The notes below the pieces were generated by a model. That model made no database searches, had not been told where the DNA came from, and saw only the letters and a program-made list of their open reading frames with translations. A DNA stretch of 64,000 nucleotides. It comes from Anaerolineae bacterium. Lineage in GTDB: Bacteria > Chloroflexota > Anaerolineae > UBA1429. Made by a program: the position numbers and the translations under genes. The DNA lies in contig JAXGPZ010000001.1 in the NCBI GenBank assembly GCA_040766725.1, forward strand, positions 1,881,946-1,945,945, written 5' to 3'. This document shows positions 100-58,566 of this stretch, piece by piece (position 1 is the first letter of the stretch; each line of letters starts with the position of its first letter).

Positions 100-729
100 T
101 CATCCCCACATCCCCAGCATTCCCAGGTAGGTGACCCAGGCGCCGGCCGCGAGATAGGGCCCGTAGGCCATCCTGTCCTTGCGGCCTGCCGTGCGCGTCA
201 CCAACAACAGCACCGCGCCCGCCCCCCCGGCGAGCACCCCCAGCACGAGGCCCCGCACGGCCACTGGCAGCCCCAGCACCGCGCCGATGGCGATGGCCAG
301 CTTGACGTCGCCGACGCCCAGTGCGCCGCGCCCGATGGCCCCGAGCAGGCCGAACATCATCGCCCCAAACAGCGCCCCGGTGAGCGCCATCCGCCAGTTG
401 GTGATGCCCAGCGGCGCCTGTGCCAGGCCCCACAGCAACAGCAGCAGCACCAGCAGGTTGGGCAGCCGCCGCGTGGCCAGGTCGATCAGGCTCAGGGTGG
501 CCAGCAACGTCGACACCACCACCACGGCCACGATCAGGCGCAGCTCGAACCCGGCGCCCCCCAGCGCCAGCCCCAGCAGCAGGCCGGCCAGCACGGCCCC
601 CACCGCGCTCACGCGATGGACCAGCGGCGCCTGCCGCAGCGGCAGATACGCCCGCAGGCCCACCATCCCCAACACCCCGCCGGCCGCGCCGACCACAGCG
701 CCCAGCACGGCCTGCAGGGCAACCGTCAT
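100..729 (-). CDS. tadV: Type IV prepilin peptidase (A24 family, TadV/CpaA-like), polytopic membrane protein
   Basis: 209-aa very hydrophobic ORF with a GxGDVKL aspartyl-peptidase motif. Last gene of the Tad operon. Its ATG overlaps the upstream TadG-like stop (ATGA at 726-729). Confidence 0.7.
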   Translation of the reverse strand: MTVALQAVLGAVVGAAGGVLGMVGLRAYLPLRQAPLVHRVSAVGAVLAGLLLGLALGGAGFELRLIVAVVVVSTLLATLSLIDLATRRLPNLLVLLLLLWGLAQAPLGITNWRMALTGALFGAMMFGLLGAIGRGALGVGDVKLAIAIGAVLGLPVAVRGLVLGVLAGGAGAVLLLVTRTAGRKDRMAYGPYLAAGAWVTYLGMLGMWG

Positions 730-1823
730 TCGATCAGGCTGACGGCGAGCACGCTGCCGCCCCCCGGAGGCGGCGGGTCGCCGGCCGTCCCGCCACAGTC
801 GGTCGTGCAGTTGTCGCAGCTCACCGTCACACGGATCACGGTGGACTTTTTCGTCTGCGACATCTGCACTTCATGCTTGGTCGGGTCATAGCAGGGATAG
901 GTCCCTGCATCACAGGTTACTTCCCAGTCGGCCAGCGGTGGCTCGACGATGGCGCAGCCAAAGCGCGAGATCATGTAGGTGCCGCCGTTGGGGCAGCTTT
1001 TGCCCGCGGTGCAGCCCATATACTCGAACACCGGGATCTTGATCTCCATGCCCGTCTGGTCGATGCAGTCTGACACCACCGACTCGCGCACGCCGCCGAC
1101 GCCCGGAATGCACGAAGGCAGCACCACGCGGTCTTTGCTGCCGCCGCTGGTCACCAGACAGGACATCTCGTTGGCGCCACAGCCGGTCTGAATGCACCCA
1201 TCGGGATACAGCGGGTCCTGCGAATCCGAGAAATCGACCCAGCCACGGCCCGCGCCGGTGACAATGTCATCGATGCCGTCGTTATCCATGTCACAGTCTT
1301 CGAGATCGCAGTTGATCTCTTGCTGCTCGTTCTGCGCGTTCCACACATAGATGACCTTGTCGCAGTTGCGGTTCCACACTTCTTCGCTAAAGGTGAGCGG
1401 CCACAGCCCGCAAGAGCTCGTGGCCACGCCGCAGGCCGCGGCGGCAGTGGCGTTCACCGGGTACTGGTCGACGCCCAGCAGCCCGAGCAGCGTGGTGTTG
1501 GCCTCTGTGCCGGCCTGCACCCACACGACATAGCCGTTGGTCGGGTCGACATTGCCATCCTGGTCGCGAATCTCGACGATGACAGGCCCCAGCGCGCCGT
1601 TCGCCTCGGCATACTCGAGCGCCCGGGCCGTCGCCTGAGCGCGGACGCCAAAGCACAGCTCATGGGCGCCTGCCAGCGCGCCCGCGTCGGCAGCGTTCTG
1701 CATCTCGCGGCGTACCGACAGCCCTGCGCCCACGTCGACGGCGAGCCCTGCAAAGAGCAGCAACGCCACCAACAGCACCGCCACCCACACCAACACCTGC
1801 CCTTCAGACCGTGGCTGCTTCAT
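726..1823 (-). CDS. tadG: TadG-like pilus-assembly protein (Tad_N domain) with Cys-rich, Ca-binding-like C-terminal domain
   Basis: N-terminal TM segment followed by a Tad_N-type 'MQNAADAGALAGA' signature. The C-terminal ~250 aa carry about 20 Cys and a DxDxDGxxD loop (CDMDNDGIDD). The start is set at the internal MKQPR (1823) rather than the ORF start at 1859. Confidence 0.55.
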   Translation of the reverse strand: MKQPRSEGQVLVWVAVLLVALLLFAGLAVDVGAGLSVRREMQNAADAGALAGAHELCFGVRAQATARALEYAEANGALGPVIVEIRDQDGNVDPTNGYVVWVQAGTEANTTLLGLLGVDQYPVNATAAAACGVATSSCGLWPLTFSEEVWNRNCDKVIYVWNAQNEQQEINCDLEDCDMDNDGIDDIVTGAGRGWVDFSDSQDPLYPDGCIQTGCGANEMSCLVTSGGSKDRVVLPSCIPGVGGVRESVVSDCIDQTGMEIKIPVFEYMGCTAGKSCPNGGTYMISRFGCAIVEPPLADWEVTCDAGTYPCYDPTKHEVQMSQTKKSTVIRVTVSCDNCTTDCGGTAGDPPPPGGGSVLAVSLIE

Positions 1824-1858
1824 GTTTTTTCCGATCTGTTTGATCGGCCTCCCGCCCA

Positions 1859-2284
1859 CTAATCTCCGACACCATACACAATCATCTCAGTCGTGGCCCC
1901 GATCTCGATCTCGCCCATACCGATGATCCCCCCCAGGATCGTGCCATATGGATAGGTCAACGAGACCGTGATCGGCAAACCCTTGAGCCAGTTGCCCGCC
2001 GGGTCGGGGTCGATGGTCACAGCCACCAGGGCAGAGTCCAGCCCATTGAGCTCCAGCTCGTCGCGCACCGCATCGATCATTCCCGGCTTGTTGGCCGGGA
2101 ATCGGCTCGCGTACCGCGCGCCCTCGCGGCTGGCGTTGGTGATGGCGATCTTGGTGAACATCGCCCGGCCCACGTCGACCACGCCCACCAGCAGAATCAT
2201 CAACAGCGGCAAGACGAGCGCCATCTCGACGAGGCTTTGGCCTCGCTGGCGCCGACGCCGCCCGCATCTGCTTTCGCGCCACAT
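1859..2284 (-). CDS. tadE: TadE-like pseudopilin / pilus assembly protein
   Basis: 141 aa with 'RGQSLVEMALVLPLLMILLVGVVDVGR', the TadE/TadF N-terminal signature. Lies inside the Tad operon. Confidence 0.7.
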   Translation of the reverse strand: MWRESRCGRRRRQRGQSLVEMALVLPLLMILLVGVVDVGRAMFTKIAITNASREGARYASRFPANKPGMIDAVRDELELNGLDSALVAVTIDPDPAGNWLKGLPITVSLTYPYGTILGGIIGMGEIEIGATTEMIVYGVGD

Positions 2285-2287
2285 GGG

Positions 2288-4111
2288 TCACCGTCCTCCG
2301 GTAAACCACTCCTTGATCGCCTCGAGCCCGGTCGCCTTGCCGGGCTTTTGCTCTTCTTGATAGCGCACATAGAGCCCGTCGACCCAGCGGTTGAGGCGCT
2401 CTTCGAGCGTGGTAAAGGCGTTCTGGGTGCTCTCAGTCGCTCTCACGGCCGTTTCTGAGGCCAGCGCCCGCTCGATGTGCGGATGCACCTGCCGATACTC
2501 GAACAGGCCGATGATCACCAGTGCCAACACCGCCGCGATGCGCCAGCCCTGCCGCAACTCGCGGCCATAGCCCGCCGCGCGCGGCTCGCTCCGCATTGCC
2601 TTGGCCTGGCGGTGCTCAGCGATGGTGCCCGGCACCACGCTCACCGCCAGAATCGCCGAAACGAACAGCCGGCGCGCCTCGAACACCCTGGCCACACCCG
2701 TCGCCTGAGGGTAGAGCCCGTGCATCAGCCACAAGAGCCCCATCAACACCACCGCCAGGCTCAGGCCCCAGCCCAACACGCGCAGGAGCCAGCGCTCGAT
2801 GGCGTAAAAGTTCGGCCAGGCCGGCGGCTGCGCCAGGCCGCGAATCAGCCCCGTCAGCGCCCACAACACCGCCACCATGGCGCCCGCGCGCGCGGCAACG
2901 GTGCCGGCCGCCGCAAAGTCAAAGATGGCCCAGTCGAACACCAGCCCGGCGATCAGCCCGGCCAACAGCCCCATCAAGGGCCGCGCCACCCGCGTCGTGA
3001 ACCTCGAGGGCACCGGCCGCACGCGCACGGTGAGCGGCACGGTGTGCAGGTGATGGCCCTCTGCCGCGCTGATGGCCACGCCCGAGGTGCTCTCTACCGA
3101 CACCGGCAACGAGGTGGTGTCCACCGTCACCAGCACATTGACGCGGCCCGAGAACTGCGCCGGCTCCACCCGCACCCAGGGGTCCAGCGGCGTGAGCTGC
3201 CCAAAGAGGTGCCCACGGCTGCCGCGTCGTCCGATGATCATCTCGTGCCGCACGATCTCGTCGGCCAGCACATAGCCCATCTTGAGCTGCCTGGGGTGCA
3301 CCCGCAGCTCGGGCGGCTCGACATAGCCGCTGGAGAGCACAAACGCCTCGAGGGCGGCCCGCCCATCCGAGGGGTGCTGCTTGAGCGCCTCGCGCACCAG
3401 TCGCGCCAGCTCATAGGCGCCCTCCGAATCGAGCCACTCTTCCAGCGACCCGTCCAGCATGTGTTTGACGGCGGCGTTGCCGTGCCGGTCAAAGAGCCGC
3501 ACCATCTCCTCGAGCGTCCAGGCCTCGAGGTTGGCTTTGATCCAGCCGCTGGTGGCCAGCACAAAGGGCCGCGATGCCCTCTGGCGCAGCGCCAGCCGGC
3601 GCTGATCGAACGCCTCGGCCAGCGCGGCGCGCATCGTCGGCTCCTCGAGCCCCGAGCCGAGCGCCGGCGGCGCCTCGCGGATGCGCTGCACCGCCTCGTC
3701 CAGCAGGGCGATGTCGATGGCCCGCTCGGCGCCGAACACCACCGGCAGCTCCTCGCTGAACGCCAGCACCGCCCTGAACGGCGGCGCCAACTGCGGCGCC
3801 TCGTCGGTCAGAAACGTCGAGACGGCCTGGCGCGCCTCGCGAGCCACACGCAGCGGGCTCGGTCGCGTCTCACGGGCGCCGCCCTCGCCCTCTACCAGCC
3901 ACGGCTCTTCGCCGTTGGCCCACACCGAGCCCCGCCAGTCGCGCACATCCAGATGGTAGATGCCCGACGGCGCCAACACCAGCCAGCCCAACTCGTGGCC
4001 ATACACCACCGGGTAGGGCAGCACGTAAAAGTCGTCGGGCAGCCCATCCAGCATCGCCTCGTAGACGATGTCCGATTCGACCGACCCTGGTTCTGCAATG
4101 ATCGTTGCCAT
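2288..4111 (-). CDS. NERD-domain polytopic membrane protein, function unknown, embedded in the Tad operon
   Basis: N-terminal ~90 aa (DFYVLPYPVVYGHELGWLVLAPSGIYHLDVRDWRG) match the NERD (nuclease-related domain) pattern. A long Ala/Arg-rich middle region follows, then 4-6 predicted TM helices at the C-terminus. Spacing to the neighbours is 3-6 nt. Confidence 0.5.
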   Translation of the reverse strand: MATIIAEPGSVESDIVYEAMLDGLPDDFYVLPYPVVYGHELGWLVLAPSGIYHLDVRDWRGSVWANGEEPWLVEGEGGARETRPSPLRVAREARQAVSTFLTDEAPQLAPPFRAVLAFSEELPVVFGAERAIDIALLDEAVQRIREAPPALGSGLEEPTMRAALAEAFDQRRLALRQRASRPFVLATSGWIKANLEAWTLEEMVRLFDRHGNAAVKHMLDGSLEEWLDSEGAYELARLVREALKQHPSDGRAALEAFVLSSGYVEPPELRVHPRQLKMGYVLADEIVRHEMIIGRRGSRGHLFGQLTPLDPWVRVEPAQFSGRVNVLVTVDTTSLPVSVESTSGVAISAAEGHHLHTVPLTVRVRPVPSRFTTRVARPLMGLLAGLIAGLVFDWAIFDFAAAGTVAARAGAMVAVLWALTGLIRGLAQPPAWPNFYAIERWLLRVLGWGLSLAVVLMGLLWLMHGLYPQATGVARVFEARRLFVSAILAVSVVPGTIAEHRQAKAMRSEPRAAGYGRELRQGWRIAAVLALVIIGLFEYRQVHPHIERALASETAVRATESTQNAFTTLEERLNRWVDGLYVRYQEEQKPGKATGLEAIKEWFTGGR

Positions 4112-4117
4112 GATCGC

Positions 4118-5136
4118 CTACGCCATCACAGACTGCTGATCGATCAGCCGCTCGCGCACAAACTGACCCTGCGGCTCGATCCTGAAATGCGCCGCATCGA
4201 GCCGGAACTCGAGGTCGACCGCGGCCATGCCCGCGCGGTTCTTTTCAACGCTCAGCACCAAAAAGCCGCGCATCTGCTCGCCGCGCACCGGATCGTTCAA
4301 CAGGTGCTCGCGGCTCACGATCGCGTGCTTGTTGTTCACCACCAGGCCGATGTCGGCCTCGTACTGGATGGCCGAGCTGCCGCGCAGGTCGCTCAGGCGC
4401 ATACGCGGCGACTTGAGCCCCGAGCGATCGGCTGCGGCGATGGCCACCACGCGCGAGCCGGTGTTGAGCGCCATGTCCTTGAGGCCCTGAATGACCTCGG
4501 TCATGCGCTCGTCCTCAGACTCGATGCGCACATCGGTGTTCACCTTTTGCAGGTAGTCGATGACCACCAGCAGCGGCCTGTCGATGCGCTCACTGATCTC
4601 TTGCGTCCACACCTCGACCGCGCCCAGGGTGGCGCTGGTGCGGCCGGGCCGCGCCAGGTGCAGTCGCTCTGAATAGGCCATCATCTGCGCCACCACAGCC
4701 CCATAGCGTCGGCTGCCTTGCAGCGCTGCAATGGGCCCGCGGCTGTCAGACGCGTCCATCGCCGACTCGTCGAGCCGCTTGAGCGTCAGGGCCTGATCGA
4801 ACGGCATCACGAACGCCGACTCGAGGCACAGCAGCCGCGAGATCAGGTGCTCGGGCTCGTGCTCGTAGCAGATGTACAGCGCGTGGGCGCCCGACTCGGA
4901 CTTGACCACGTTTCGCGCTAACTGCAGGGCAAGGATCGTCTTGCCCACGCCGCTGGGCCCGCCCAGCACCACCAGCTCACCGCTGCGCAGCCCGCCCCCG
5001 ATGACCTCATCTAGCGGCACGAACCCGGTTGGCAGCGGCCAGCGGCGCATGGCCTGCGCGGGCGTAACGCCGTCGATGGCGGCCAGCGTCTCACGCGCCG
5101 TCACCGGGCTATACTCGAGGGCATCCTTCTCGATGC

Positions 5137-5140
<4 letters not shown>
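4118..5140 (-). CDS. RecA-superfamily ATPase, DnaB C-terminal/KaiC/FlaH-like (AAA_25-type), standalone
   Basis: PTGFVPLDEVIGGGLRSGELVVLGGPSGVGKT (DnaB-C 'TGF..LD' plus Walker A) and LLVVIDYLQ (DnaB-type Walker B). No DnaB N-terminal domain. The ATG at 5140 overlaps the cpaF stop TGA (ATGA). The ORF-track start at 5146 is a GTG two codons upstream. Confidence 0.6.
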
Positions 5141-6516
<1,376 letters not shown>

Positions 6517-6526
6517 CGCTCTGGTC

Positions 6527-8386
6527 TCACCTCACCCAAATCGGGTCATACTCGTTGTAGGCGGTGTTCGAGATGTTCGTGATGCCGCGCCCCTGCGCGT
6601 CCATCACATAGATCTGGTTACGCAGCTCGCGGTTCGACCAAAACACGATCCGCGAACTGTCGGGCGACCACGAGGGGTGTTTGTCCCACTCCCATTTGTT
6701 GGGGGTGATGTTGCGCACACCAGACCCGTCGGGCCGCATGGTGTGGATATCATCGCTGCCAGAGGCTTGGCTCACAAAGGCAATGGTCGATCCATCGGGC
6801 GACCATACAGGATCATAGCATAGTCCTCCGGCCTCGGTCAACTGCCTTGGCTGCGGATTCGGGAACTGCGACGTCGGCGGGTCCTGGATAAAGATCTGCG
6901 CGATGCCGTTCACACTGCGCACAAAGAGCGAGTAGCGGCCGTCGGGCGAAGAGCGCTGCGCCTCGACCAGCTCCTCGTATTGTATGCGCAGCGTGCTCGA
7001 GCGCCCCAGGTACTCGCGTTGTGAGCCGTCGGGCGCCATCACCCAGTAGCCGGGATAGTCCTCATGGTCGCTGACAAAGACGATCATGTTGTGATAGGCG
7101 TTGAGCGGCCGCGGTGTGGGCACCGGCGTGGGCGCGCGCGGAGGCGCCGGCGTGGCCGTGGGCAGCGGCGTGGGCGTGGGCGTCGGTGTCGGCGTCGGCG
7201 TCAGCACCGGCACGATGTCGACGATCCGCTTCTCGGCCAGAGCGCGATCCTCCACCGGCAACAGGCTGGCCTCGACATAGGCCGCATAGGCCATGCCCAC
7301 GTCGCCCGCACTCTGATACTGGTCGCCCAGGTTGATATAGGCCGTGTACAGCATGGTGAGCACGTTGGCGCGCATGAACGCCGGCCGCCGATCAAAGACC
7401 GCGCGCAGCAGCCGCGTGGCATCGGCCCAGGCCCCGCGGTTATACATGATCTGCCCGCTGAGATAGTCGTTCACCACATCGCGCAGCAGGGCCGCCGTCG
7501 CCTCGCGCGGGCGCAACACCAGCGCCGCCTCAAAGTGCTTGACGGCCTCGGGCAGCGCCTCGGGGTTCTCGGGCCCCCTGTCCATGATCGCCTGCCCCAC
7601 CGCCAGGTGCAGCTCAAAGATCTTGGCCCGCACCACATCGCTGCGATACGAGGCGTCGAGCCGCTGCACCTGTTCATACAGCGCCAGCGCCTGATCCAAC
7701 TCGCCCGCCTCTTCGCTGGCCACCGCCTCGTTGAAGAGGGTGTCGCGCTGCTGCAGCCGGCCGATGTCGACAATGCGCGCCGCCACGTCGCGGTAGCCGG
7801 GACTGTCCACCTGCAGCGCCACATACTCGGCCATGGCCTCATCCAGAGCGCCGGCATCTTGCAGTGCCACAGCGCGCTCATAGCGCTCGAGGATCGCCGC
7901 GTCAGCCTCGATGCTCGCCAACAGCTCTTGCGCCCCTTTGTACTCGGGCGCCGCGGCCAGCAGCCGCTCTACGCGCTCCGCTGCCTCGTCATACTGACCG
8001 CCGGCGTAAAAGGCCTGCGCCTCGGCGAATAGCGCCTGCTGCTGCCGCTGCACCTGCGCCGACTGCACCTCGGGCAAGAGCTGCTGGCTGTAGATGCGCC
8101 GCCCGCCCCAGCCTGCCAGCAGCACCACCGCCAACAGCAGCGCATAGGTGGCCACGCGGCGCCAGGGGATGATGGCCCAGCGCGCACGCACGCCGCGCCC
8201 CTCGATGCCCGCACGCAGCTCTGCCTCGTCCAGCAGCTCGCGCGCGTCCTGGTCTCCGGGGTAGGCCTGCAGCACCTCTTGCAGCAGGGTGCGCACGTCC
8301 TTCCAGCGTCCCTGCTGAAACGCCTTGCGCGCTTCGATCAACGCCTCGTCGCGGCCCAGCCGCTCCACGTGCCCTTTTCTGGCCAT
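6527..8386 (-). CDS. Membrane-anchored TPR-repeat protein with (PT)n linker and C-terminal TolB-like beta-propeller
   Basis: One TM helix (WRRVATYALLLAVVLLAGW) and multiple TPR-like helical repeats. An LTPTPTPTPTPTPLPTATPAPPRAPTPVPTPRP linker follows. The C-terminus carries PD40/TolB-type repeats (SPDGRYSLF, SPDGSTIAFVS, SWSPDSSRIVFWSNR). Confidence 0.65.
   Translation of the reverse strand: MARKGHVERLGRDEALIEARKAFQQGRWKDVRTLLQEVLQAYPGDQDARELLDEAELRAGIEGRGVRARWAIIPWRRVATYALLLAVVLLAGWGGRRIYSQQLLPEVQSAQVQRQQQALFAEAQAFYAGGQYDEAAERVERLLAAAPEYKGAQELLASIEADAAILERYERAVALQDAGALDEAMAEYVALQVDSPGYRDVAARIVDIGRLQQRDTLFNEAVASEEAGELDQALALYEQVQRLDASYRSDVVRAKIFELHLAVGQAIMDRGPENPEALPEAVKHFEAALVLRPREATAALLRDVVNDYLSGQIMYNRGAWADATRLLRAVFDRRPAFMRANVLTMLYTAYINLGDQYQSAGDVGMAYAAYVEASLLPVEDRALAEKRIVDIVPVLTPTPTPTPTPTPLPTATPAPPRAPTPVPTPRPLNAYHNMIVFVSDHEDYPGYWVMAPDGSQREYLGRSSTLRIQYEELVEAQRSSPDGRYSLFVRSVNGIAQIFIQDPPTSQFPNPQPRQLTEAGGLCYDPVWSPDGSTIAFVSQASGSDDIHTMRPDGSGVRNITPNKWEWDKHPSWSPDSSRIVFWSNRELRNQIYVMDAQGRGITNISNTAYNEYDPIWVR
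7105..7215 (-). repeat. Low-complexity (ggcgt/ggtgt)n coding repeat encoding the Pro-Thr linker
   Basis: Visible run ggcgtgggcgtgggcgtcggtgtcggcgtcggcgtc on the + strand. It encodes (TP)n within the TPR/TolB gene, so it is a coding repeat and not a mobile or CRISPR repeat. Confidence 0.6.
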
Positions 8387-8397
8387 GTACTCCCCTG

Positions 8398-9342
8398 TCA
8401 GCCCCCAGATGCGGCGCCGAGCGTCTGCAGAATGCGCGGAATGCTCGGGCCAAGGATGAACACGAATAGCGCCGGAAACACCAAGAAGACCAGCGGAAAC
8501 AGCATCTTGATCGATGCTTCATGCGCCAGTTGCTCGATGCGCTGGCGCCGCTTTTCGCGGATCAACGCCGCTTGCGAGTGCAGCACGTCGGCGATGCTCA
8601 CGCCCAACTGCGCCGACTGAATCAGTACCGCCACAAACGTGCGCAGCTCGGGCACGTCGGCGCGCGTGGTGAGGCGTTGCAGCGCCTGGTCGCGGGGCGT
8701 GCCCACGCGCATCTCGAGCACCGTGCGGCGCAGCTCGCGCGTCAACGCGTTGTCCCAGCGCTCGGCCACCCGCAGCATCGCCGACTCGAATGCCAGGCCC
8801 GCCTCCACCGAGATGGTGAGCATGTCGAGCGCATCGGGCAGGCGGCGCGTGATCTCTTTGCGGCGCTGGCGGATCTTGCTGCCCAGCCACAGCGATGGCA
8901 GCAGATAGCCCAGGCCGGCCAGCACCAGCCCCATCAGCAGCCCGTTCGACAGAGTGCGCGTGCGCGCGCTCACCGCAAACCCCAGCGCGCCCAGCACGAT
9001 GCCCATCAGCACGCGCAGCCCCATAAAGTCGATGGCGCTGAGGTTGTAGGGGTTGCCGGCCTGCACCAGCTTTTGGCGGGCGTCCTCGACGCGCGCCACC
9101 GGCAGCCGCCTGGCCAGCCAGCGCACGAATCTGCGGAACGGTGGCACCACCAACCGGCGCAGTAACCCGGTCGTCTGCAGGTCCTGGTCGCGCGCCGGGC
9201 GCTGGCCCGCATACGCCTCGAGCCGCTGCTTGTCGGTGCTGGGCCTGCCCGGGCGAATGGCGAGGGCGCCAAACATCACCACCAGCGCAATCAGCGCTGC
9301 AAAGATGGCTGGGCCTACGGTCACAATGGCACTCGCGCTCAT
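8398..9342 (-). CDS. tadC: TadC (type II secretion system F-family inner-membrane platform protein)
   Basis: T2SSF domain. Start chosen at MSASAIV (9342), which has a GGAG 9 nt upstream; the ORF extends to 9492. Confidence 0.75.
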   Translation of the reverse strand: MSASAIVTVGPAIFAALIALVVMFGALAIRPGRPSTDKQRLEAYAGQRPARDQDLQTTGLLRRLVVPPFRRFVRWLARRLPVARVEDARQKLVQAGNPYNLSAIDFMGLRVLMGIVLGALGFAVSARTRTLSNGLLMGLVLAGLGYLLPSLWLGSKIRQRRKEITRRLPDALDMLTISVEAGLAFESAMLRVAERWDNALTRELRRTVLEMRVGTPRDQALQRLTTRADVPELRTFVAVLIQSAQLGVSIADVLHSQAALIREKRRQRIEQLAHEASIKMLFPLVFLVFPALFVFILGPSIPRILQTLGAASGG

Positions 9343-9359
9343 CGTGGGCATTCTCCTCG

Positions 9360-10310
9360 CTAGACGTCGATCGCCACGATGCGTTGAATGAGATAATAGC
9401 CGATCGCCTGCAACACCACGGCGCCGATCGGCAGCGCGCGGAACGGCCCGGGCTCGAGGAAGGGGTCGTAGAAGGTGGGCTCCAACAGCCACACCACCAC
9501 CGCCAGGCCGATGGGCAGCACCGCCAGGATGTTGCCCGATAGGCGCTGCTGCGCCGTCAGCGTGCGGATCTCGCCCTGCAGGCGGATGCGGTCGCGGATC
9601 GTCTCGGCGATGATCTCGAGCGTCTCGGCCAGGTTGCCGCCCGTCTGCCGCTGCACGTTGATGGCCGTCACCATCATGGCCACGTCGTCTGAGCCCACGC
9701 GCTGCGCCAGCTCTTCGAGCGCATCGGTCAGGGGCTGGCCCAGCTCGACGGCCTGCACCACGCGCGCAAACTCGGCCGCGCTGGGGTCGGGCATCTGCTC
9801 CACCACCAGCCGCAACGCCTGGTTGATGCCCTGCCCCGCCCGCAGACCGCTCACCAGCAGCGTCAACACGTCGGGGAGCTGTTCGTTCATCAGCCGCACG
9901 CGCTTGCGCGCCCGGCCGTTGAGCAGCATCTGCGAGCCCAGATAGGCCAGCACCGCGAACAGAATGCCCGCCAACGCGCCGCGCACGGCCAACCCGATCA
10001 CCAGCCCGACCACAACCAGGCCGATGGTGATCATGGTGAATTCAGAGGCGGTCACCGGCAGGTCGGCCTGTGAGAGCTTGAACGCCAGCGCCGATCCCGG
10101 GGTCGACGATCGCCGATTGCCAAAGAGGTGCCGGGCCTTGCGTTCGCTCTGTCGTGCCTCGCGGTCGAGCCCCAGCTCTTTGATGCGCTGCTCGATCGGG
10201 TCGCGCGACTGGGATGCCTTCCACAGCCACACAAACACCAGCAACGTCAGCGTCGCCATCAAGAAAGCAAAGACCAGCGGCCCCGCGCCTACCGATGCTG
10301 CGGCCCCCAC
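9360..10310 (-). CDS. tadB: TadB (T2SSF-family inner-membrane platform protein)
   Basis: Three TM segments plus a T2SSF-like cytoplasmic domain (LVSGLRAGQGINQALRLVVEQ). Sits next to tadC. Confidence 0.75.
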   Translation of the reverse strand: MGAAASVGAGPLVFAFLMATLTLLVFVWLWKASQSRDPIEQRIKELGLDREARQSERKARHLFGNRRSSTPGSALAFKLSQADLPVTASEFTMITIGLVVVGLVIGLAVRGALAGILFAVLAYLGSQMLLNGRARKRVRLMNEQLPDVLTLLVSGLRAGQGINQALRLVVEQMPDPSAAEFARVVQAVELGQPLTDALEELAQRVGSDDVAMMVTAINVQRQTGGNLAETLEIIAETIRDRIRLQGEIRTLTAQQRLSGNILAVLPIGLAVVVWLLEPTFYDPFLEPGPFRALPIGAVVLQAIGYYLIQRIVAIDV

Positions 10311-10361
10311 GCTTCTGTCTCTCCTCCTCGCTCAGCGCCGCGCGGCAGCAGCGCCCTGATG

Positions 10362-11585
10362 CTACTTGCTCCTTGCGAATAACGACCTGAGGCCCGACGC
10401 TCGGGGCGCCTCCTCGCCCTGCAGTTGCGCCACCCCATAGGCCTGCAGCAGTTTGCGGCTCAGGCCGTGATAGGCGCGGCCCAACGCGCTGCGCGGATGC
10501 CGCATGGCCACCGGCACACCGCGGTTGATGCTCGCCAGCGCCAGTTGCGGATCATCGGGTATCGTATGGCGTACGTTCAGCAGACGCCGCTCGATCTCGC
10601 TCTGGGGTATGCCATGGGTGGCCGATGCCCGGTTGAGCACCATCCACACCTTTTCTTGCGCATAGCCCCGGCTGTGCAACTGGTCGATCATGGCGCGCGC
10701 GTTGCGCACGGCCGCCATCTCGGGCGGCAATACCATCAACACCACGTCGGCCACGTCGGTGACGCTGTAGGCCACCTCGTCGAGCGGGTGCCCCAGGTCG
10801 ACCACCGTCCACGCGCACATACGCCGCAACAGCACCAGCACCCGCTCCATATGGGCCGTGCTCGGGTGCGTTTCCATGTGCCCGGGCGGGGGCGTCACCA
10901 TCACGCGCACGCCCGAGCTGTGCGTCTGCAGAATGCCGTCCAGCAGCTCTGTGTCGATCGAGCCCAGCCGCTCGAACACCTCGGCGATGGTGCGCCGCGC
11001 CGGCACGTTCATCATCACGTCCACCGCCGGCGCCATAAAGTCAGCGTCCAGCAGCGCCACGCTGGTGTGCCCATCGTGCGCCAGGCAAACGGCCAGGTTG
11101 CAGGCCACGCTCGTCCGGCCCACGCCGCCTCTGGGCCCCACCACCGCCACAATGCGCCCGTTGACGCCTTCGCCGGCCCCGGCGGGGCCAGCCGCCTCGC
11201 GCGCCGACAGCAACTGCCGCAACGTCTGTTGCAGCTCGAAGGACTGTGGCAGCAGCGGCTTGGGCAGCACCGCCCGTGCGCCGGCCATCACCGCACGGTT
11301 GGCCAGCTCCAGCCGATCCGGCTCCACCAGCATCACCACGGTGGCCATCGGGCAGCAGTCGCCCAGTTGCCGTACATACCGCTCGGGGTTGGCGCCCACA
11401 TTGTCGTCGATCATGATGATCTGCGGCGACAGGCTCACGGCCCGCGACGCGGCCAGCTCGGCTTGCGAGACCCAGAAAACGCGATTCGGTTGGTCCCACC
11501 CACGCAGGGACTCGCGCAACTCGTCTTGTGCTTCCGAGCGAGCGCTGACCAGTAGCAGCCTCAGCTCGGCATCTTGTGGCGGCAC
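10362..11585 (-). CDS. cpaE: CpaE/TadZ: N-terminal receiver-like domain + MinD/ParA-type ATPase
   Basis: A receiver-like N-terminus (LRLLLVSARSE...IIMIDDNVG) followed by a deviant Walker A, VVGPRGGVGRTSVACNLA, of the MinD/ParA type. Confidence 0.8.
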   Translation of the reverse strand: MPPQDAELRLLLVSARSEAQDELRESLRGWDQPNRVFWVSQAELAASRAVSLSPQIIMIDDNVGANPERYVRQLGDCCPMATVVMLVEPDRLELANRAVMAGARAVLPKPLLPQSFELQQTLRQLLSAREAAGPAGAGEGVNGRIVAVVGPRGGVGRTSVACNLAVCLAHDGHTSVALLDADFMAPAVDVMMNVPARRTIAEVFERLGSIDTELLDGILQTHSSGVRVMVTPPPGHMETHPSTAHMERVLVLLRRMCAWTVVDLGHPLDEVAYSVTDVADVVLMVLPPEMAAVRNARAMIDQLHSRGYAQEKVWMVLNRASATHGIPQSEIERRLLNVRHTIPDDPQLALASINRGVPVAMRHPRSALGRAYHGLSRKLLQAYGVAQLQGEEAPRASGLRSLFARSK

Positions 11586-11630
11586 AACCTACCTCCTGGC
11601 CTGGCGTCGGTGTATCTCCCCCCCGGGATC

Positions 11631-12419
11631 TCACCGCACCGGAATGCTGTACGCGTCGATCACATAGTCGATGTCGACCGGGTCAAACTCCCACTCCTGG
11701 TCGGCCCCGGGCGCGCGCAGCGCGATATCCTGGATAGCGCCCGAATCGAGCGCATACTTGAGCACCAGCGCGTCCTGGGGCGCCAACGTCACCAGCAGCG
11801 CCTTGGGTGCCGCTGGCGGCTCGTTGGTCGGCTTGCCCGCCGAATCGGTCGGCTGCGTGGCCCCGGGCAGCGCGGCGATGGTCACATTCTGCAGCAGGAT
11901 ATAGGTGATCATCTCCTCACCCTCGCCCTCGATGCCTCCCTTGGGAAACTGCATCGAGACGAGGATATCGACCCTGTCGCCGGGTTTGAGCACCGCCACC
12001 TGACTCATCAAGTCGGTGGCGGGCATGGCCACTAGCACCTGCTCGGCGTTGAGCGCCACTGCCGTGCGGCCATCGGCAGCGATGATGTTGGGATCCACCA
12101 GTCGCTGCTCGAGCAGCACCTCGCCGGTGTAGAGCTCGGTCAGCGTCAGCTTGCCCACCGCCGCCTCCACCTCAGTAAAGGCCCCCACGGGCACCGAGGC
12201 CACCGGCAGCTCTTGGGTCGTCAGCATCTCGGCGGTGAGCAACGTGCGCACGGGCACGGGCTGCGCCGTCACCACCACCTGCTGCGTGGCGCCCTCGACG
12301 CGCACCTCGCCCACTGAAACGCGAGCGGCGCGCGACAGCGTCACATAGGCCACCACCGCCGCCAGAAACGCCACCACCAGCCCGGCCAGCAGCCACAAAA
12401 AGCCCCGCAGTCGCGACAT
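11631..12419 (-). CDS. cpaB: CpaB/RcpC Flp pilus assembly protein (SAF domain)
   Basis: N-terminal TM segment and SAF-like region, with the characteristic C-terminal GGIEG...LLVTLAPQDALVLKYALDSG. Confidence 0.8.
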   Translation of the reverse strand: MSRLRGFLWLLAGLVVAFLAAVVAYVTLSRAARVSVGEVRVEGATQQVVVTAQPVPVRTLLTAEMLTTQELPVASVPVGAFTEVEAAVGKLTLTELYTGEVLLEQRLVDPNIIAADGRTAVALNAEQVLVAMPATDLMSQVAVLKPGDRVDILVSMQFPKGGIEGEGEEMITYILLQNVTIAALPGATQPTDSAGKPTNEPPAAPKALLVTLAPQDALVLKYALDSGAIQDIALRAPGADQEWEFDPVDIDYVIDAYSIPVR

Positions 12420-12434
12420 GCGCCCCCTCGCTTG

Positions 12435-12857
12435 CTACTCTCTGATCATCGATGACGTGGCTCGCAGCGTGAACGGCCCCGACGACCCGCCGCCCAGCGC
12501 CTGAATGACCGGCGCCGTGATCAGCCGCGTGTCATACGCCACCTGCACCTCCACCCGCGTCGGCCTGACCTGCGCGACCACATCGAGCCGGGCCGGGTCC
12601 AGGTTGGCGGCTGCGGCCATCTCTTCGGCAGCCGCTTCAGCGATGGCCTGCACCTCCGCGTTGGTCCCGCGTGCCACAATGCCGTGGCGCGCCCCCTGAC
12701 GGGCAGCGCTGGCCACGGCATTGTACTGAAACACCACCACAGCGAACTCGACGAACACCAACACGATGACGAGCAGCAACGGCGTCACCAGGGCGAACTC
12801 GATCAGGTCCTGCCCCTCACACCGGCGTCGCATCGGCATCCTTTCGTTGGTCGACAC
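12435..12857 (-). CDS. tadE: TadE-like protein
   Basis: GQDLIEFALVTPLLLVIVLVFVEFAVVVF is a TadE/F N-terminal signature. Located immediately after flp. Confidence 0.7.
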   Translation of the reverse strand: MSTNERMPMRRRCEGQDLIEFALVTPLLLVIVLVFVEFAVVVFQYNAVASAARQGARHGIVARGTNAEVQAIAEAAAEEMAAAANLDPARLDVVAQVRPTRVEVQVAYDTRLITAPVIQALGGGSSGPFTLRATSSMIRE

Positions 12858-12860
12858 ATC

Positions 12861-13037
12861 CTAGGGCAGCGGCCCGTTGATCCAGGCCGCTGCCACTTGC
12901 CAGATCCCTGTCAACTGACCGCCCAGGCCCGTCAGCGCGATCACGCTGGAGAGCACGAGCACCACAATCAGGAGAGCATATTCAATCGTGTCCTGGCCGT
13001 CCGACGCTTGCCTCTCGGAACGTCTCAGCGTGGCCAT
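12861..13037 (-). CDS. flp: Flp/Fap family pilin (prepilin)
   Basis: Start at MATLRR, which has a GGGAG Shine-Dalgarno sequence. A short charged leader is followed by G/QDTIEYALLIVVLVLSSVIALTGLGGQL, the class IVb Flp G/XXXXEY cleavage motif, and a hydrophobic helix. Confidence 0.75.
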   Translation of the reverse strand: MATLRRSERQASDGQDTIEYALLIVVLVLSSVIALTGLGGQLTGIWQVAAAWINGPLP

Positions 13038-13117: not shown

Positions 13118-13255
13118 CTACTCAGTGATGTTGTCCAGCTCTCCCCGGCTGCCAAGCCAGGTCTGGATCTCGACCCAGAGGTTGTTGATCTCTGTGCCCA
13201 GCAGGCCCAGGCCGATCACGGCCACCACCACCAACAACACGATACGTCACGGCAT
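13118..13255 (-). pseudogene. Degenerate second Flp pilin paralog (mature-helix portion only), overlapping the 3' end of the plsC-like ORF
   Basis: A minus-strand frame gives M-P-TGA and then RIVLLVVVAVIGLGLLGTEINNLWVEIQTWLGSRGELDNITE*. This resembles the mature part of the adjacent flp, but the leader and G/EY site are missing and an in-frame TGA lies 2 codons after an ATG. Confidence 0.3.
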
Positions 13256-13817
13256 AGGGCCCGCCGCCGTACCAGCGGATCTTGTCCTGGCGGCCCGCCA
13301 CCTTGACCGGCAGCAACCGCAGGTGCTCGGCCGGCGCATAGATGCCCACCGGCACCACCGGCACGCGCGCCCGCAGCGCGATGCGCGCCGCTCCGCTACG
13401 CGGGTGGGCCACCTCGCCCGTCTCGGGGCTGATGCGCCCCTCGGGGAACACACACAGCGCATAGCCCGCCTGCAACGCCTCGATGGCCCCGCGCAGCGCA
13501 CGCCGCGGGTCGCCGGCGCCCGCCGACACCATGCCCGCTGCCTTGAGCACCATCTTGAGCCCCGGCACGTGGAACAGCTTGTAGGACGTGAGAAAGACCA
13601 TCCGCCGCCTGATCAGGCTGGCGACGACAAAGGGGTCCAGCGAGGTGGGATGGTTGATGGCCAGCAACACCGGCCCGTCGGGCAGCGGCGCATGCCACGC
13701 CACGCTCTTGCGCCAGCGCCACGACACCGCCCGCGCCAGGCCGCGCAGCAGGTCATACACCAGGTCAGCCACCCAGCGGGCTGCGCGCGGATAGCCTGTG
13801 TGTCTCCCCAGCGACAT
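13122..13817 (-). CDS. 1-acyl-sn-glycerol-3-phosphate acyltransferase-like (LPLAT/PlsC family); 3' end uncertain
   Basis: LLAINHPTSLDPF (an HX4D-like block) and the CVFPEGRIS motif. The C-terminal ~40 aa (GGGGRDRPGPAGH...) look like read-through into the pilin remnant. Confidence 0.65.
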   Translation of the reverse strand: MSLGRHTGYPRAARWVADLVYDLLRGLARAVSWRWRKSVAWHAPLPDGPVLLAINHPTSLDPFVVASLIRRRMVFLTSYKLFHVPGLKMVLKAAGMVSAGAGDPRRALRGAIEALQAGYALCVFPEGRISPETGEVAHPRSGAARIALRARVPVVPVGIYAPAEHLRLLPVKVAGRQDKIRWYGGGPYAVTYRVVGGGGRDRPGPAGHRDQQPLGRDPDLAWQPGRAGQHH

Positions 13818-16463: not shown

Positions 16464-17495
16464 CTACATCTTGACCAGCCGGTGAAAGTTGCCGTTGTAC
16501 ACCTTTTCGAGCACGTCGTCGGGCAGGTGCAGGCCGTAGATGTTGAAACGCCCCTGCCCACCGCGCGGCCCGGTGGTGTATGGAAAGTACTCGTCGCGCG
16601 TCTCGAGAAAGCGATAGTGCACCCGAAACATGTCGGGCAGCGGCGTGATGTCGGTGCCAAACACGATGCGGTCCGCGTACTTGATGAACCACTCGCGAGC
16701 GGCATAGGGCACGCGGCCCAGCTCGGCAATGCGCGCCGAGATGTCGGTGTTAAAGTTCGGGTACTTGTCCAGCATCTGCGACACGAACGCCAGGTTCTCG
16801 GGGTAGCACCCCACGTGCGCCGTGATGAACGTCGTGCGCGGGTGGGCCTCGATCAGCCGGTACAGGCTCTCGATCAGCTCCATGAACTTGGGATACTGCG
16901 GTCCATAGAACATCCAGCTCGGATGGTCATGCAGCTCGTCCCAGCGCTCATTGAAGCGATCCAGCGGCTTGAAGAACGCCGTCGGGTCGGCCACGTGGAT
17001 CAGCACGGGAATGTCCAGCTCGGCGCACTGCTCGAACACATCGCCGATGCGCGGGTCGTCGGGCCACAAGAGCTTGCCGTCGCAGTCGTGGAACTGCAGG
17101 CCCAGGCTCTTGAAGATCTTGAGGCCCCTGGCGCCGGCGGCCACGTCGGCGGCGAGCTGCCTGGTGGCCTGCGCGGTCCACTCGGCCGTGCCGGCCCCTT
17201 CCCAGTTCACGTTGCAGAAGGTGCAAAAGCGCCCCGGGTGGGTCTCGTCGAGCGTCTCCAGGCTGCGCTTGAGGTCATCGCCCCAGCCGCCGCTCAGGTT
17301 CACGATCGTCTTGACGCGCACCTCGTCGAGGTTGGCCAGCAGCTCAGGCACGTCGACCTTGGCAAAGCGCGGATGGTTGACCGGCAGATGGTTGTGCCCA
17401 TCGACCACGTCGAACTTGGGCCGGCGCACCTCGGTGACCGGAGTGACCACCTCGGATATGGGATAGTAGTCCTCGACAAAGATACTGCCCTGCAT
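16464..17495 (-). CDS. Amidohydrolase-2 family TIM-barrel metal-dependent hydrolase (lactonase/decarboxylase-like)
   Basis: VDGHNHLPV... HVADPT... ITAHVGC... FGTDI, the PF04909-type metal ligand pattern. About 65-70% identical to the 21115-22155 paralog. Confidence 0.7.
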   Translation of the reverse strand: MQGSIFVEDYYPISEVVTPVTEVRRPKFDVVDGHNHLPVNHPRFAKVDVPELLANLDEVRVKTIVNLSGGWGDDLKRSLETLDETHPGRFCTFCNVNWEGAGTAEWTAQATRQLAADVAAGARGLKIFKSLGLQFHDCDGKLLWPDDPRIGDVFEQCAELDIPVLIHVADPTAFFKPLDRFNERWDELHDHPSWMFYGPQYPKFMELIESLYRLIEAHPRTTFITAHVGCYPENLAFVSQMLDKYPNFNTDISARIAELGRVPYAAREWFIKYADRIVFGTDITPLPDMFRVHYRFLETRDEYFPYTTGPRGGQGRFNIYGLHLPDDVLEKVYNGNFHRLVKM

Positions 17496-17513
17496 ATTCG
17501 CTCCTCGAATCCT

Positions 17514-18404
17514 CTAGCCTTTGACGCCGGTAAAGACAATGCCCTGCACAAAGTAGCGCTGCGCGAAAAAGTAGATGATCAGTACCGGCATCATCACGAT
17601 CACCGATGCGGCCATCAACAGCTCCCACTTGGTCTCGTATTGCCCGCGGAAGAGCTGCAGGCCCAGCGCCAGCGTGTAGCGCTTCTGATCGTTGAGATAG
17701 ATCAGCGGGCCCATAAAGTCGTTCCAGCGGTAGAGGAACTGAAAGATGGCCACCGTGCCGATCACCGGCTTGCTCAGCGGGCCCACAATGCGCCAGAACA
17801 CGCCGAACACGCCACAGCCATCGATCTTGGCGGCGTCATCCAGATCGAGCGGCAAGGTCATAAAGAACTGCCGCATCAAAAAGATGTTGAACGGGCCGCC
17901 GCCAAAGAACGCCGGCACGATCAGCGGCACGAACGTGTTCACAAACCCCATCGACCGCCAGATGGCGAACACCGGGATCATGGTCACGTGCTGCGGCAGC
18001 ATCATGGTGGCGATGACGATCAGGAACAGCGTGTCGCGGCCCACCCAGCGCAATCGTGCAAAGCTATAGCCCACGATGGCCGAGGTCAGCGTGGCGCCCA
18101 CCACCGTCCACGCGGTGATGATCACCGTGTTCAGGGTAAAGGTGGCAAACGGCACATAGTTCCAGGCCATGGGATAGTTGCTCCACACGAACGGATCGGG
18201 GATCCACTCGGGCGGAAAGATGAACACGGCGCCGGGCCGCTTGAGCGACGTCGACACCATCCAGAGAAAAGGCACCATCAGCACCGCGGCGCCCGCAAAC
18301 AGGATGACATAGACCACCGTGCGCTGCAGTCGCTGCATAAAGCTGATGCTGCTGGTGATCTTGAGCTTTTGCACTGGCCGGGCGGTGGGTGTAGCAGTCT
18401 CCAT
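17514..18404 (-). CDS. Carbohydrate ABC transporter permease (MalG-like)
   Basis: Six TM segments and the EAA-like loop (LDDAAKIDGCGVFGVFWRIVGP). Confidence 0.8.
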   Translation of the reverse strand: METATPTARPVQKLKITSSISFMQRLQRTVVYVILFAGAAVLMVPFLWMVSTSLKRPGAVFIFPPEWIPDPFVWSNYPMAWNYVPFATFTLNTVIITAWTVVGATLTSAIVGYSFARLRWVGRDTLFLIVIATMMLPQHVTMIPVFAIWRSMGFVNTFVPLIVPAFFGGGPFNIFLMRQFFMTLPLDLDDAAKIDGCGVFGVFWRIVGPLSKPVIGTVAIFQFLYRWNDFMGPLIYLNDQKRYTLALGLQLFRGQYETKWELLMAASVIVMMPVLIIYFFAQRYFVQGIVFTGVKG

Positions 18405-18413
18405 AGTGACCTC

Positions 18414-19367: not shown

Positions 19368-19432
19368 CAGCGCTCCTCCTAAAGCATACCGGCAGGGAGC
19401 CGTAGAGCCCCCTGCCGGTTGTTGCCACGAAA

Positions 19433-20863: not shown

Positions 20864-21010
20864 GATGCGGTTCTCCTCTCACTCTACTCGGAATCCTGAG
20901 CCCTTCGACACAACCCTGACACTGATAGTGACGCGCGTTCTCCGTCCTCCTTGACTGATCTGCCGCGGCATCCCAAAGCTGCGGTTGGCCGCTCAACCCG
21001 CACCGTTAAT

Positions 21011-21039
21011 ATAGTAGCCCCCAGCCCCCCTCGCGTCAA
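21011..21039 (-). promoter_or_regulatory. Candidate promoter (TTGACG-17-TACTAT on the minus strand) for the amidohydrolase/ABC cassette 1 operon
   Basis: Lies in the 250-nt lower-GC intergenic region, about 145 nt upstream of the binding-protein start at 20863. Confidence 0.3.
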
Positions 21040-21114
21040 GTGCCAATCTGTACGATGCTGCACTATCGATCATAGACATTCAGTGTCACCGACAGTTTCG
21101 ATCATTCCGAGCGT

Positions 21115-22155: not shown

Positions 22156-22333
22156 CGTCCCTCCACCAACAGGATTCTGTGAGGCGCGCCGCGCGCATTG
22201 TGGCCTGTGCGCCGCACGTTCGAGCACCTTGCATAGCCAAAACCCGCGCCCTGGGTGAATGCCAGGCCGGCCGCAAACGAAACAGGCGCGCCTCACACAG
22301 GCCGGCGTGCCTGTGGCTGCCACTCCACTATCG

Positions 22334-23236: not shown

Positions 23237-23239
23237 TGC

Positions 23240-24160: not shown

Positions 24161-24250
24161 TGCAGAACTCCTCGGTTGCTAGTAGGACTGCCGTTCATCT
24201 GGCAAGACCGGGCAGGGAACGCTCGCTCCCTGCCCGGTGCGTCATCCTGA

Positions 24251-28162: not shown

Positions 28163-28170
28163 GGGGCCCT

Positions 28171-37496: not shown

Positions 37497-37497
37497 C

Positions 37498-58527: not shown

Positions 58528-58566
58528 GACAGCTCCCTTCCGCATCGAGATACGGCCCTCTTGAGC

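Follow-up and report, generated by a model that had tools for sequence, protein, structure and literature searches.

The window analysed here is a 64,000-nucleotide (64-kb) stretch of DNA from an Anaerolineae bacterium (assembly GCA_040766725.1, contig JAXGPZ010000001.1, positions 1,881,946 to 1,945,945), and the subject of this analysis is a cluster of 13 genes near its start that is very probably a lineage-typical, secretin-less Tad/Flp (type IVc) pilus operon of Anaerolineae-type Chloroflexota. Genes were called over the whole window and every called gene was then scanned against Pfam; unless stated otherwise, the Pfam assignments given below are scores above the gathering thresholds. The 13 open reading frames (ORFs) all lie on the minus strand and span positions 100-13037. 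In their coding frames, the G+C content at third codon positions (GC3) ranges from 0.81 to 0.94. With the best-supported starts, which were chosen from upstream purine-rich motifs and from the genes called independently on contig L001 (99.5% identical), the intergenic spacing is -4 to +51 nucleotides (nt). An earlier note on this DNA had described 13 co-directional and tightly packed genes, and this description is borne out. Three ATGA start/stop overlaps had been claimed as well; two are present, between cpaF and the following ATPase gene (5137-5140) and between tadG and tadV (726-729), and a third was not found. A scan of the intergenic regions for sigma-70 promoter and terminator consensus sequences returned nothing above shuffled expectation, and Rfam searches of the window (gathering threshold) and of the L001 upstream region (E<=1) revealed no riboswitch or other RNA family. 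In the direction of transcription, the features of the locus are as follows (an arrow in a motif marks the prepilin processing site).

13118..13243, minus strand: flp-1 3' remnant, the tail of a canonical major-pilin gene; encodes IVLLVVVAVIGLG...DNITE-stop.
12861..13037, minus strand: flp-2, a 58-residue Flp-type prepilin candidate, MATLRRSERQASDG↓QDTIEYALLIVVLVL..., put forward from its motif, helix and position.
12435..12833, minus strand: tadE-like minor pilin 1, 132 residues from the ATG; Pfam TadE 46.9 bits versus a gathering score of 22.9.
11631..12419, minus strand: cpaB/rcpC; Pfam SAF 37.6 and RcpC 36.3 bits.
10362..11585, minus strand: cpaE/tadZ-like, ParA/MinD family; Pfam ParA (PF10609) 39.6 and CbiA (PF01656) 34.4 bits.
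9360..10310, minus strand: tadB platform protein; one T2SSF domain, 75.3 bits.
8398..9342, minus strand: tadC platform protein; one T2SSF domain, 63.4 bits.
6527..8386, minus strand: accessory gene 1, TPR/PD40 protein, 619 residues; Pfam PD40 57.5 and TPR_2 42.3 bits.
5137..6516, minus strand: cpaF/tadA secretion ATPase (motor); Pfam T2SSE (PF00437) 209.7 bits versus a gathering score of 24.9.
4118..5140, minus strand: accessory gene 2, DnaB-C-like ATPase, 340 residues; Pfam DnaB_C 88.6, AAA_25 49.5 and KaiC-type ATPase 37.1 bits.
2288..4111, minus strand: accessory gene 3, NERD-TM membrane protein, 607 residues; Pfam NERD 25.8 bits versus a gathering score of 22.1.
1859..2284, minus strand: tadE-like minor pilin 2; Pfam TadE 61.6 bits, motif RG↓QSLVEMALV.
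726..1823, minus strand: tadG-like large pseudopilin, 365 residues from the ATG; Pfam Tad (PF13400) 46.6 bits.
100..729, minus strand: tadV/cpaA prepilin peptidase, 209 residues; Pfam Peptidase_A24 (PF01478) 50.8 bits.

The assignment of the locus is carried by its core machinery. In the profile searches that the earlier note had suggested as a check, all core Tad parts except flp pass the Pfam gathering thresholds, whereas flp is without a Flp_Fap match. For the motor CpaF, the best NCBIfam match is the TadA family (333 bits, just under the cut-off of 373); the protein is 60-90% identical among related loci, and an exact copy is encoded on a contig of the metagenome-assembled genome (MAG) GCA_964415325.1 and in the Logan assembly of SRR28082821. 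The platform is split into the adjacent tadB and tadC genes, which encode one T2SSF domain (PF00482) each. An internal ATG was taken as the start of tadC, the longest ORF reaching 9492 and overlapping tadB; a 314-residue gene is also called in L001. CpaB passes the NCBIfam equivalog TIGR03177 (98.3 bits versus a cut-off of 71) and consists of an N-terminal transmembrane (TM) anchor (residues 10-28) followed by the SAF and RcpC domains. CpaE/TadZ is extended at its N-terminus, and its P-loop (residues of about 150-158) is a variant, GPRGGVGRT. Its orthologues read KGGTGRT in 27 of 41 cases, with Arg in place of the canonical Walker A Lys; the protein may bind ATP but not hydrolyse it. CpaE/TadZ scores below all NCBIfam cut-offs, with a weak match to the 'KGGVGR-motif variant AAA ATPase' domain, and CpaE homologues in the Pfam lists of syntenic loci carry Response_reg matches. 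Two genes encode TadE-type pseudopilins (PF07811, 46.9 and 61.6 bits), the first of which contains the processing motif EG↓QDLIEFALV and has a longest-ORF start at 12857. TadG, whose longest ORF starts at 1859, combines a TM segment (residues 10-28) with a Cys-rich C-terminal domain. TadV consists of an A24 domain only, without a methyltransferase domain; it has about seven TM segments, and both of its Asp motifs are present (SLIDLATRRLP and GVGDVKL). In agreement with the claim that the operon lacks an RcpA/CpaC secretin, RcpB and TadD, the Pfam scan of all genes called over the 64 kb found no Secretin, Secretin_N or TadD-/RcpB-type family.

The pilin genes lie at the upstream end of the operon. 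Flp-2 contains the processing motif DG↓QDTIEYALL and a single hydrophobic helix, and has a mature part of 44 residues; its ATG is preceded by GGGAG, and the same gene is called in L001. Based on its motif, helix, mature length and position, flp-2 is considered a candidate Flp prepilin. Upstream of it, the flp-1 remnant (13118-13243) sits just outside the span that the earlier note had assigned to the operon. A blastn comparison with L001 revealed that 726 nt of that contig are missing from the window at 13243/13244. The missing segment holds the 3' end of an acyltransferase gene, an intergenic region of ~480 nt and the first 26 codons of flp-1. The flp-1 remnant is fused out of frame to an acyltransferase ORF (13122-13817). 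The gene is also damaged in L001, where it begins MTSLYLYIKN-stop-IKAQEG↓QDLIEYALI...; the in-frame TGA corresponds to a Trp codon in the nearest species, L009, whose intact flp-1 orthologue reads MTSLYLYIKNWIKAQEG↓QDLIEY. Elsewhere, the coordinates that correspond to the lesion are 2548-3273 and 3196-3398 in L001 and about 2130-2260 in L009. Most related loci have one or two flp genes, whose leader reads M..LYL.IKNWL..EEG↓QDLIEY, and the flp-1 restored from L001 and L009 matches Flp_Fap with 22 bits (E=1.4e-4), under the gathering score of 32.2. Unless assembly or read errors are at work, flp-1 has thus suffered a different lesion in each of the two assemblies. For this reason, the description of the Tad set as complete holds in that all Tad-specific parts are encoded, and is doubtful in that the 5' part of flp-1 and the presumed promoter region are lost with the 726 nt.

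These lesions raise the question of whether the operon is expressed. As reported by Xia et al. 2016 (PMC4877987), Anaerolineales pilus clusters that lack a preceding pilA show no transcription. Because flp-1 and its upstream region are lost here, this copy may show little or no expression. A variant that has been silenced or is decaying, in which the loss of flp-1 and ~480 nt of upstream sequence leaves little or no pilus to be made, is a possibility of some weight, though on balance an unlikely one. It draws on the 726 extra nt in the 99.5%-identical L001, on the separate lesion of the L001 gene (TGA versus Trp in L009) and on the untranscribed pilA-less clusters. In contrast, the 13 downstream ORFs are all intact with a strong coding-frame GC3, a plausible ribosome-binding site precedes flp-2, which also encodes a processing motif, and read-through from the co-directional acyltransferase gene could drive expression. 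The lesions themselves may be technical: the deletion junction (13243/13244) has no microhomology and could therefore be an assembly join, and the TGA could be a read error. With flp-1 truncated, expression may be poor or may hinge on flp-2 and on read-through out of the upstream gene. The alternative of a silenced variant concerns the expression state and leaves the assignment of the locus to a Tad operon untouched.

As the earlier note had stated, three extra genes are interleaved with the core genes. All three are real; they encode a TPR+PD40 protein, a DnaB_C/AAA_25/KaiC-like ATPase and a NERD protein with multiple TM segments. A PADLOC search returned nothing meaningful for any of the three. 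The first protein, which begins MARKGHVERLGRDE, has neither a signal peptide nor a lipobox. It is bitopic, with a short cytoplasmic N-terminus and one TM segment at about residues 72-90, and is predicted to adopt an N-in/C-out topology because more positive charge is found on the N-terminal side of the TM segment. TPR repeats take up the ~300 residues after the TM segment; a Pro/Thr-rich linker (about 395-425) then leads into a C-terminal PD40 (TolB-like) beta-propeller, which is the best-conserved part among 44 orthologues. Its gene lies between tadC and cpaF in 50 of 61 related loci. Although the absence of TadD is true by homology, this TPR envelope protein at a fixed position may be a functional analogue. 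Two named identities were rejected for it. An assignment as TolB fails, as PD40 repeats cover residues 476-613 only and TIGR02800 scores 77 bits versus a cut-off of 343. An assignment as a TadD pilotin fails on the lack of a TadD-/RcpB-type family match and of a lipobox, on the internal TM segment and on the PD40 propeller.

The ATG of the second accessory gene overlaps the stop codon of cpaF (ATGA). Relatives of its product were sought in one genome per species, which gave 536 genomes. The catalytic motifs are invariant in 26 homologues (48-80% identity): a Walker A motif GxxGVGKT, a glutamate in CYEH, a Walker B motif VVDYLQK and the sequence DLRGSSAxQYEAD, which we take to be an Arg-finger-like motif following DnaB motif H4. 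Because of this invariance, the protein is likely an active ATPase, a view drawn from its residues. Sequence and profile searches of the PDB returned RecA concatemers first, DnaB next and then KaiC, and the helix that precedes the motor aligns with the DnaB linker region (profile 14-122 with residues 152-260 of a 2vye chain). An AlphaFold2 (AF2) model was of moderate quality, with a mean predicted local distance difference test score (pLDDT) of 69 and a predicted TM-score (pTM) of 0.74, the C-terminal third falling below 50. When this model was searched with Foldseek, the top 50 matches were all DnaB-type helicases, including that of phage G40P, with a TM-score of about 0.65 when normalised by the query and 0.5 when normalised by the target; no ArlH/FlaH structure was among the best fold matches. 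Two specific identities were nevertheless rejected. The protein is not a DnaB replicative helicase, as the N-terminal domain is absent and TIGR00665 scores 81.6 bits versus a cut-off of 385. Orthology to KaiC/ArlH is not supported either, as Pfam KaiC-type scores 37 versus 88.6 bits for DnaB_C, and KaiC_arch reaches 35 versus cut-offs near 250.

The named homologues of the ATPase belong nearly all to Anaerolineae, Anaerolineales, Caldilineae, Ardenticatenaceae/Ardenticatenia or other Chloroflexota. Homologues of 45-54% identity with no detectable tad gene nearby occur in L025 (3061-4242), L034 (7811-8950, Litorilinea sp.) and L086 (9773-10927), the last among apparent ribosomal-protein genes. 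The family is concluded to be mostly, not exclusively, linked to Tad. Outside the phylum, the region 8999-10930 of an Actinomycetota MAG contig (L088, JBKKCR010000068.1) holds a homologue of 42-43% identity in divergent orientation to two flp genes. The Tad locus there has the canonical cpaE-cpaF adjacency, and the association with the ATPase is in an independent arrangement; this single example suggests that the association reaches beyond Chloroflexota.

The third accessory protein consists of a degenerate NERD-like alpha/beta domain (about residues 20-170), a helical domain (about 199-259), an immunoglobulin-like (Ig) sandwich of the PapD/ASH/MSP type (about 267-364), five to six TM segments (about 369-550) and a C-terminal coiled coil. 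Foldseek searches with its AF2 model (mean pLDDT 74) matched mainly the Ig domain and gave no functional lead. A word-indexed homology search returned only seven proteins, and a repeat with the alignment added none, whereas an exhaustive profile search of representatives yielded 96 full-length-type clusters at E<=1e-30. The catalytic residues of NERD are of the PD-(D/E)xK type (Asp ... Glu-x-Lys). Among 32 orthologues, the Glu position is occupied by His, Tyr or other residues; the clade of the window (ELGW...HLDVRDW) has lost the Asp as well. Nuclease activity therefore appears unlikely from the residues present. The helical and Ig domains also occur as a module in membrane Ser/Thr kinases, between the kinase domain and the TM region, and this placement argues for a cytoplasmic location of the module in NERD-TM. 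In three proteins of 2100-2270 residues (P0189, P0224 and P0261), the Ig-like (PapD/ASH-type) module that NERD-TM has once is repeated in tandem, with 15-17 copies each.

The combination of a helicase-like motor with a NERD protein could point to a DNA-uptake (competence) machine, in which the Tad pilus would capture DNA, the ATPase would act as a single-stranded DNA translocase and NERD-TM as a nuclease or channel, comparable to ComFA/ComEC. Tad pili are linked to DNA uptake in the title of PMC8513845, and Angelov et al. 2015, whom a review (PMC6916266) cites for the Tad pili of Micrococcus luteus, reportedly connected these pili to transformation. The ATPase is nearest to the DnaB helicase motor domain in both sequence and fold, and NERD-TM joins a NERD domain to a polytopic membrane region. 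On the other side, the NERD catalytic Glu is missing family-wide, with the Asp also lost in the clade of the window, and the NERD and Ig domains are predicted to be cytoplasmic from the positive-inside rule and from the side of the module in Ser/Thr kinases. Furthermore, many loci keep the ATPase without NERD-TM, the window holds no ComEA, ComEC or DprA-like gene, and the ATPase lacks the N-terminal domain of DnaB. A competence machine is therefore considered improbable, and the locus is read as a Tad pilus operon with accessory subunits.

The absence of a secretin is consistent with what is reported for the envelope of the phylum. According to the respective sources, Chloroflexota are probably monoderm with a multilayered envelope (10.1101/2025.08.19.671072; PMC7332563), lack a true outer membrane (10.1101/2025.08.19.671072) and are listed among the monoderm phyla with Tad pili (PMC6916266). 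In several members, Tad is described as the sole pilus system, and filaments have been seen by electron microscopy (PMC7332563; 10.1101/2025.08.19.671072; PMC13319060). Loss of the secretin is known from monoderm Tad systems (PMC6668835). The alternative of a diderm-type machine, with its secretin and pilotin encoded elsewhere in the genome, can draw on the size of the inspected span (64 kb), on the retention of CpaB/RcpC, which binds the secretin in Pseudomonas (PMC12307814), and on the multilayered envelopes described in PMC7332563 and PMC13319060. It is judged very improbable: a secretin is missing from the window and also from the precomputed Pfam lists that cover +/-10 kb at three syntenic loci (L003, L005 and L007), the phylum is given as monoderm and without a true outer membrane in the literature just cited, and secretin loss in monoderm Tad systems has precedent. 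With the Tad parts present and the secretin, TadD and RcpB all missing from the window, the secretin-less, monoderm-type interpretation offered by the earlier note is supported.

To place the gene order in its lineage, all 13 proteins of the window were compared by tblastn with the best 80 non-redundant ATPase loci. The three loci named above (L003, L005 and L007), which come from an Ardenticatenaceae genome, a Caldilineae MAG and an Anaerolineae MAG, share one gene series: flp (one or two copies) - tadE - cpaB - cpaE - (small ORF) - tadB - tadC - a protein of ~620 residues - cpaF - a DnaB_C ATPase of ~350 residues - a NERD protein of ~625-650 residues - tadE - tadG - ... - tadV. The small ORF, of ~50 residues, lies at 4455-4610 in L005 and at 4622-4774 in L007; in the window, a 51-nt gap separates cpaE from tadB and holds no equivalent ORF. 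Among the 61 loci with at least 4.2 kb of upstream flank, the order TPR/PD40 - cpaF - ATPase is present in 50, and cpaF is located further upstream of the ATPase in two more. Downstream of the ATPase, NERD-TM is found in 27 of the 53 loci with at least 2.6 kb of flank, and tadE follows directly in 14 of the 53. The gene order, which had been called non-canonical, is so relative to proteobacterial and actinobacterial loci, but it is the standard layout within the lineage, as the three loci and the 50 of 61 demonstrate. The Tad order in Bifidobacterium breve and Mycobacterium tuberculosis is tadZ-tadA-tadB-tadC. The position of cpaF after tadBC is concluded to be a lineage trait, because the Anaerolineae-type loci share it whereas the Chloroflexales and the Actinomycetota locus L088 differ; for the Chloroflexales, PMC7332563 gives the canonical order rcpC-tadZABC.

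Because the TPR/PD40 - cpaF - ATPase arrangement recurs in 50 of 61 loci, the three extra genes are regarded as conserved, lineage-specific members of the locus and not as interruptions. That they are unrelated cargo (a defence or mobile insertion) within the Tad operon is scarcely credible: NERD, DnaB_C/AAA and TPR domains are frequent in defence islands, and weak matches link the NERD region to MAD6 and PglW and the ATPase to mad8 (E=5e-7), but the PADLOC matches are marginal and partial, order and positions are fixed in dozens of species at 26-90% protein identity, the composition equals that of the flanking tad genes, the gaps are 6-11 nt plus the ATGA overlap with cpaF, and no integrase, transposase or repeats were seen. 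The idea of a defence island was rejected on the marginal PADLOC matches, and that of unrelated cargo is effectively refuted by the synteny.

The operon was also compared with known systems. The Tad clusters of Anaerolineales and other Chloroflexota (PMC4877987; PMC7332563; 10.1101/2025.08.19.671072; PMC13319060) come from the same phylum and share the named genes, a leading flp and the lack of any reported secretin. Xia et al. 2016 (PMC4877987) describe a conserved and highly transcribed Anaerolineales cluster, pilA-cpaB-cpaE-tadB-tadC-cpaF. In the available text of this group of papers, only canonical tad genes are named, and the TPR/PD40 protein, the DnaB-C-like ATPase and NERD-TM are not described; the Chloroflexales order, rcpC-tadZABC, differs from that of the window, where cpaF follows tadBC. 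Actinobacterial Tad systems (B. breve and M. luteus; PMC6916266) likewise lack a secretin, RcpB and TadD, and share Flp, TadE-type minor pilins, TadB/TadC, TadA/CpaF and TadZ with the window locus. They are minimal and without RcpC (PMC6916266), whereas the window locus keeps CpaB/RcpC and adds three accessory proteins. The diderm systems (flp-tadV-rcpCAB-tadZABCDEFG of A. actinomycetemcomitans, cpa of Caulobacter and rcp/tad of Pseudomonas) have in common with the window locus the core of Flp, TadV/CpaA, RcpC/CpaB, TadZ/CpaE, TadA/CpaF, TadB, TadC and TadE/F/G. In contrast, they possess the RcpA/CpaC secretin, RcpB and the TadD lipoprotein, none of which is encoded in the window, where the TPR protein is a TM-anchored PD40 fusion. 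In the archaellum, the pair ArlH-ArlI (PMC4858521) also sets a RecA-superfamily ATPase beside a TadA/FlaI-type ATPase as a probable partner. The window ATPase (~340 residues) is nearer to the C-terminal domain of DnaB than to ArlH, such that orthology is unsupported and the likeness is an analogy only. With DnaB, the protein shares a RecA-like motor, Walker A and B motifs, a catalytic Glu, Arg-finger-type motifs and the preceding helix; DnaB has a primase-binding N-terminal domain and acts in replication, whereas the window ATPase has no such domain and is encoded in a pilus operon.

A working model of the machine can be proposed from these parts. TadV would process Flp and the TadE/TadG prepilins by cutting behind the Gly in G↓Q(D/S/V)L(I/V)E, and the CpaF hexamer would drive the TadB/TadC platform to polymerise Flp into a thin adhesive filament, which TadE, TadE2 and TadG may prime or tip. 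CpaE/TadZ, with its variant P-loop, would position the machine, and a membrane-anchored CpaB/RcpC ring would guide the filament away from the membrane; in Pseudomonas, RcpC forms a dodecameric, ring-shaped conduit (PMC12307814). The extracytoplasmic TPR arm and propeller of the TPR/PD40 protein could connect the machine with the wall or outer layers, or make an opening in them, a job that falls to the secretin and the TPR lipoprotein TadD in diderms. The DnaB-C-like ATPase, translationally coupled to CpaF, is pictured as a ring that would dock on or regulate the CpaF motor, in a role like that of the RecA/KaiC-type ArlH towards ArlI in archaella; this parallel is an analogy and implies no orthology. 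KaiC-family ATPases accompany both archaeal type IV pili and the archaellum (PMC4858521). NERD-TM may be a dispensable regulatory or scaffolding subunit. These roles of the three accessory proteins are put forward tentatively and by analogy. It is likewise a tentative suggestion that the operon represents a distinct Anaerolineae-type Tad sub-type, in which the ATPase is a second motor or regulator and a functional counterpart of ArlH, the TPR/PD40 protein and CpaB replace the secretin and TadD in taking the filament across a multilayered monoderm envelope, and NERD-TM, which has no kinase domain, provides optional regulation.

Several points weigh against this overall interpretation. Among the core components, CpaF, CpaE and TadE score under the curated NCBIfam cut-offs, though above those of Pfam, and flp-2 has no match to Flp_Fap even at E<=10 and none in NCBIfam. 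The secretin search covers 64 kb of the genome, and the monodermy of Chloroflexota is taken from the literature. The accessory roles rest on position, domain content and analogy. The greater closeness of the ATPase to DnaB than to ArlH/KaiC, in sequence and in fold, weakens the ArlH analogy. In about nine of the 80 loci the ATPase lies away from Tad genes, including two at 52-54% identity, and NERD-TM is missing from a good fraction of the loci (present in 27 of 53).

The remainder of the window holds genes for ABC transporters, oxidoreductases, glycoside hydrolases and the like. On the minus strand, two tandem cassettes of like organisation occupy 16464-25816, each with an Amidohydro_2 enzyme, two BPD_transp_1 permeases and an extracellular or TAT-signal (twin-arginine translocation) binding protein; their appearance is that of an ABC uptake module for sugars or aromatic acids that has been duplicated. 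A 964-residue FtsX-type permease is encoded at 37984-40878 (plus strand), and a 698-residue protein with a membrane region like that of the major facilitator superfamily and a spermidine-synthase-like domain at 41484-43580 (minus strand). The ORFs at 28159-28641, 37486-37896 and 40909-41451 have no Pfam match. A 1075-residue ORF on the plus strand (56911-60138) was rejected as an antisense artefact of high G+C content, with no Pfam match and a G+C content at first codon positions of 0.89. The real genes beneath it are the following.

57025-58545, minus strand: GH43 glycosidase.
58567-59178, minus strand: beta-carbonic anhydrase.
59203-60441, minus strand: CorA Mg2+ transporter.

The layout of the operon is lineage-wide, a conserved Anaerolineales cluster having been reported in 2016, and the operon is itself one more example. 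For the three accessory components, no description was found in the literature searched. Tad pili have been proposed to serve aggregation, floc formation and possibly surface motility in filamentous Chloroflexota of wastewater and sediment. The flp-1 lesions imply that the presence of the operon in a MAG is not to be equated with piliation. Together with these lesions in the pilin genes, the main remaining interest lies in the TPR/PD40 protein and the ATPase, which are near-constant and unannotated members of the Tad locus of this lineage. As such, they are candidates for two questions that stand open in PMC6916266 and PMC6920026: by what route a Tad filament passes a thick envelope in the absence of a secretin, and what keeps a machine with only one CpaF motor assembled and under control.

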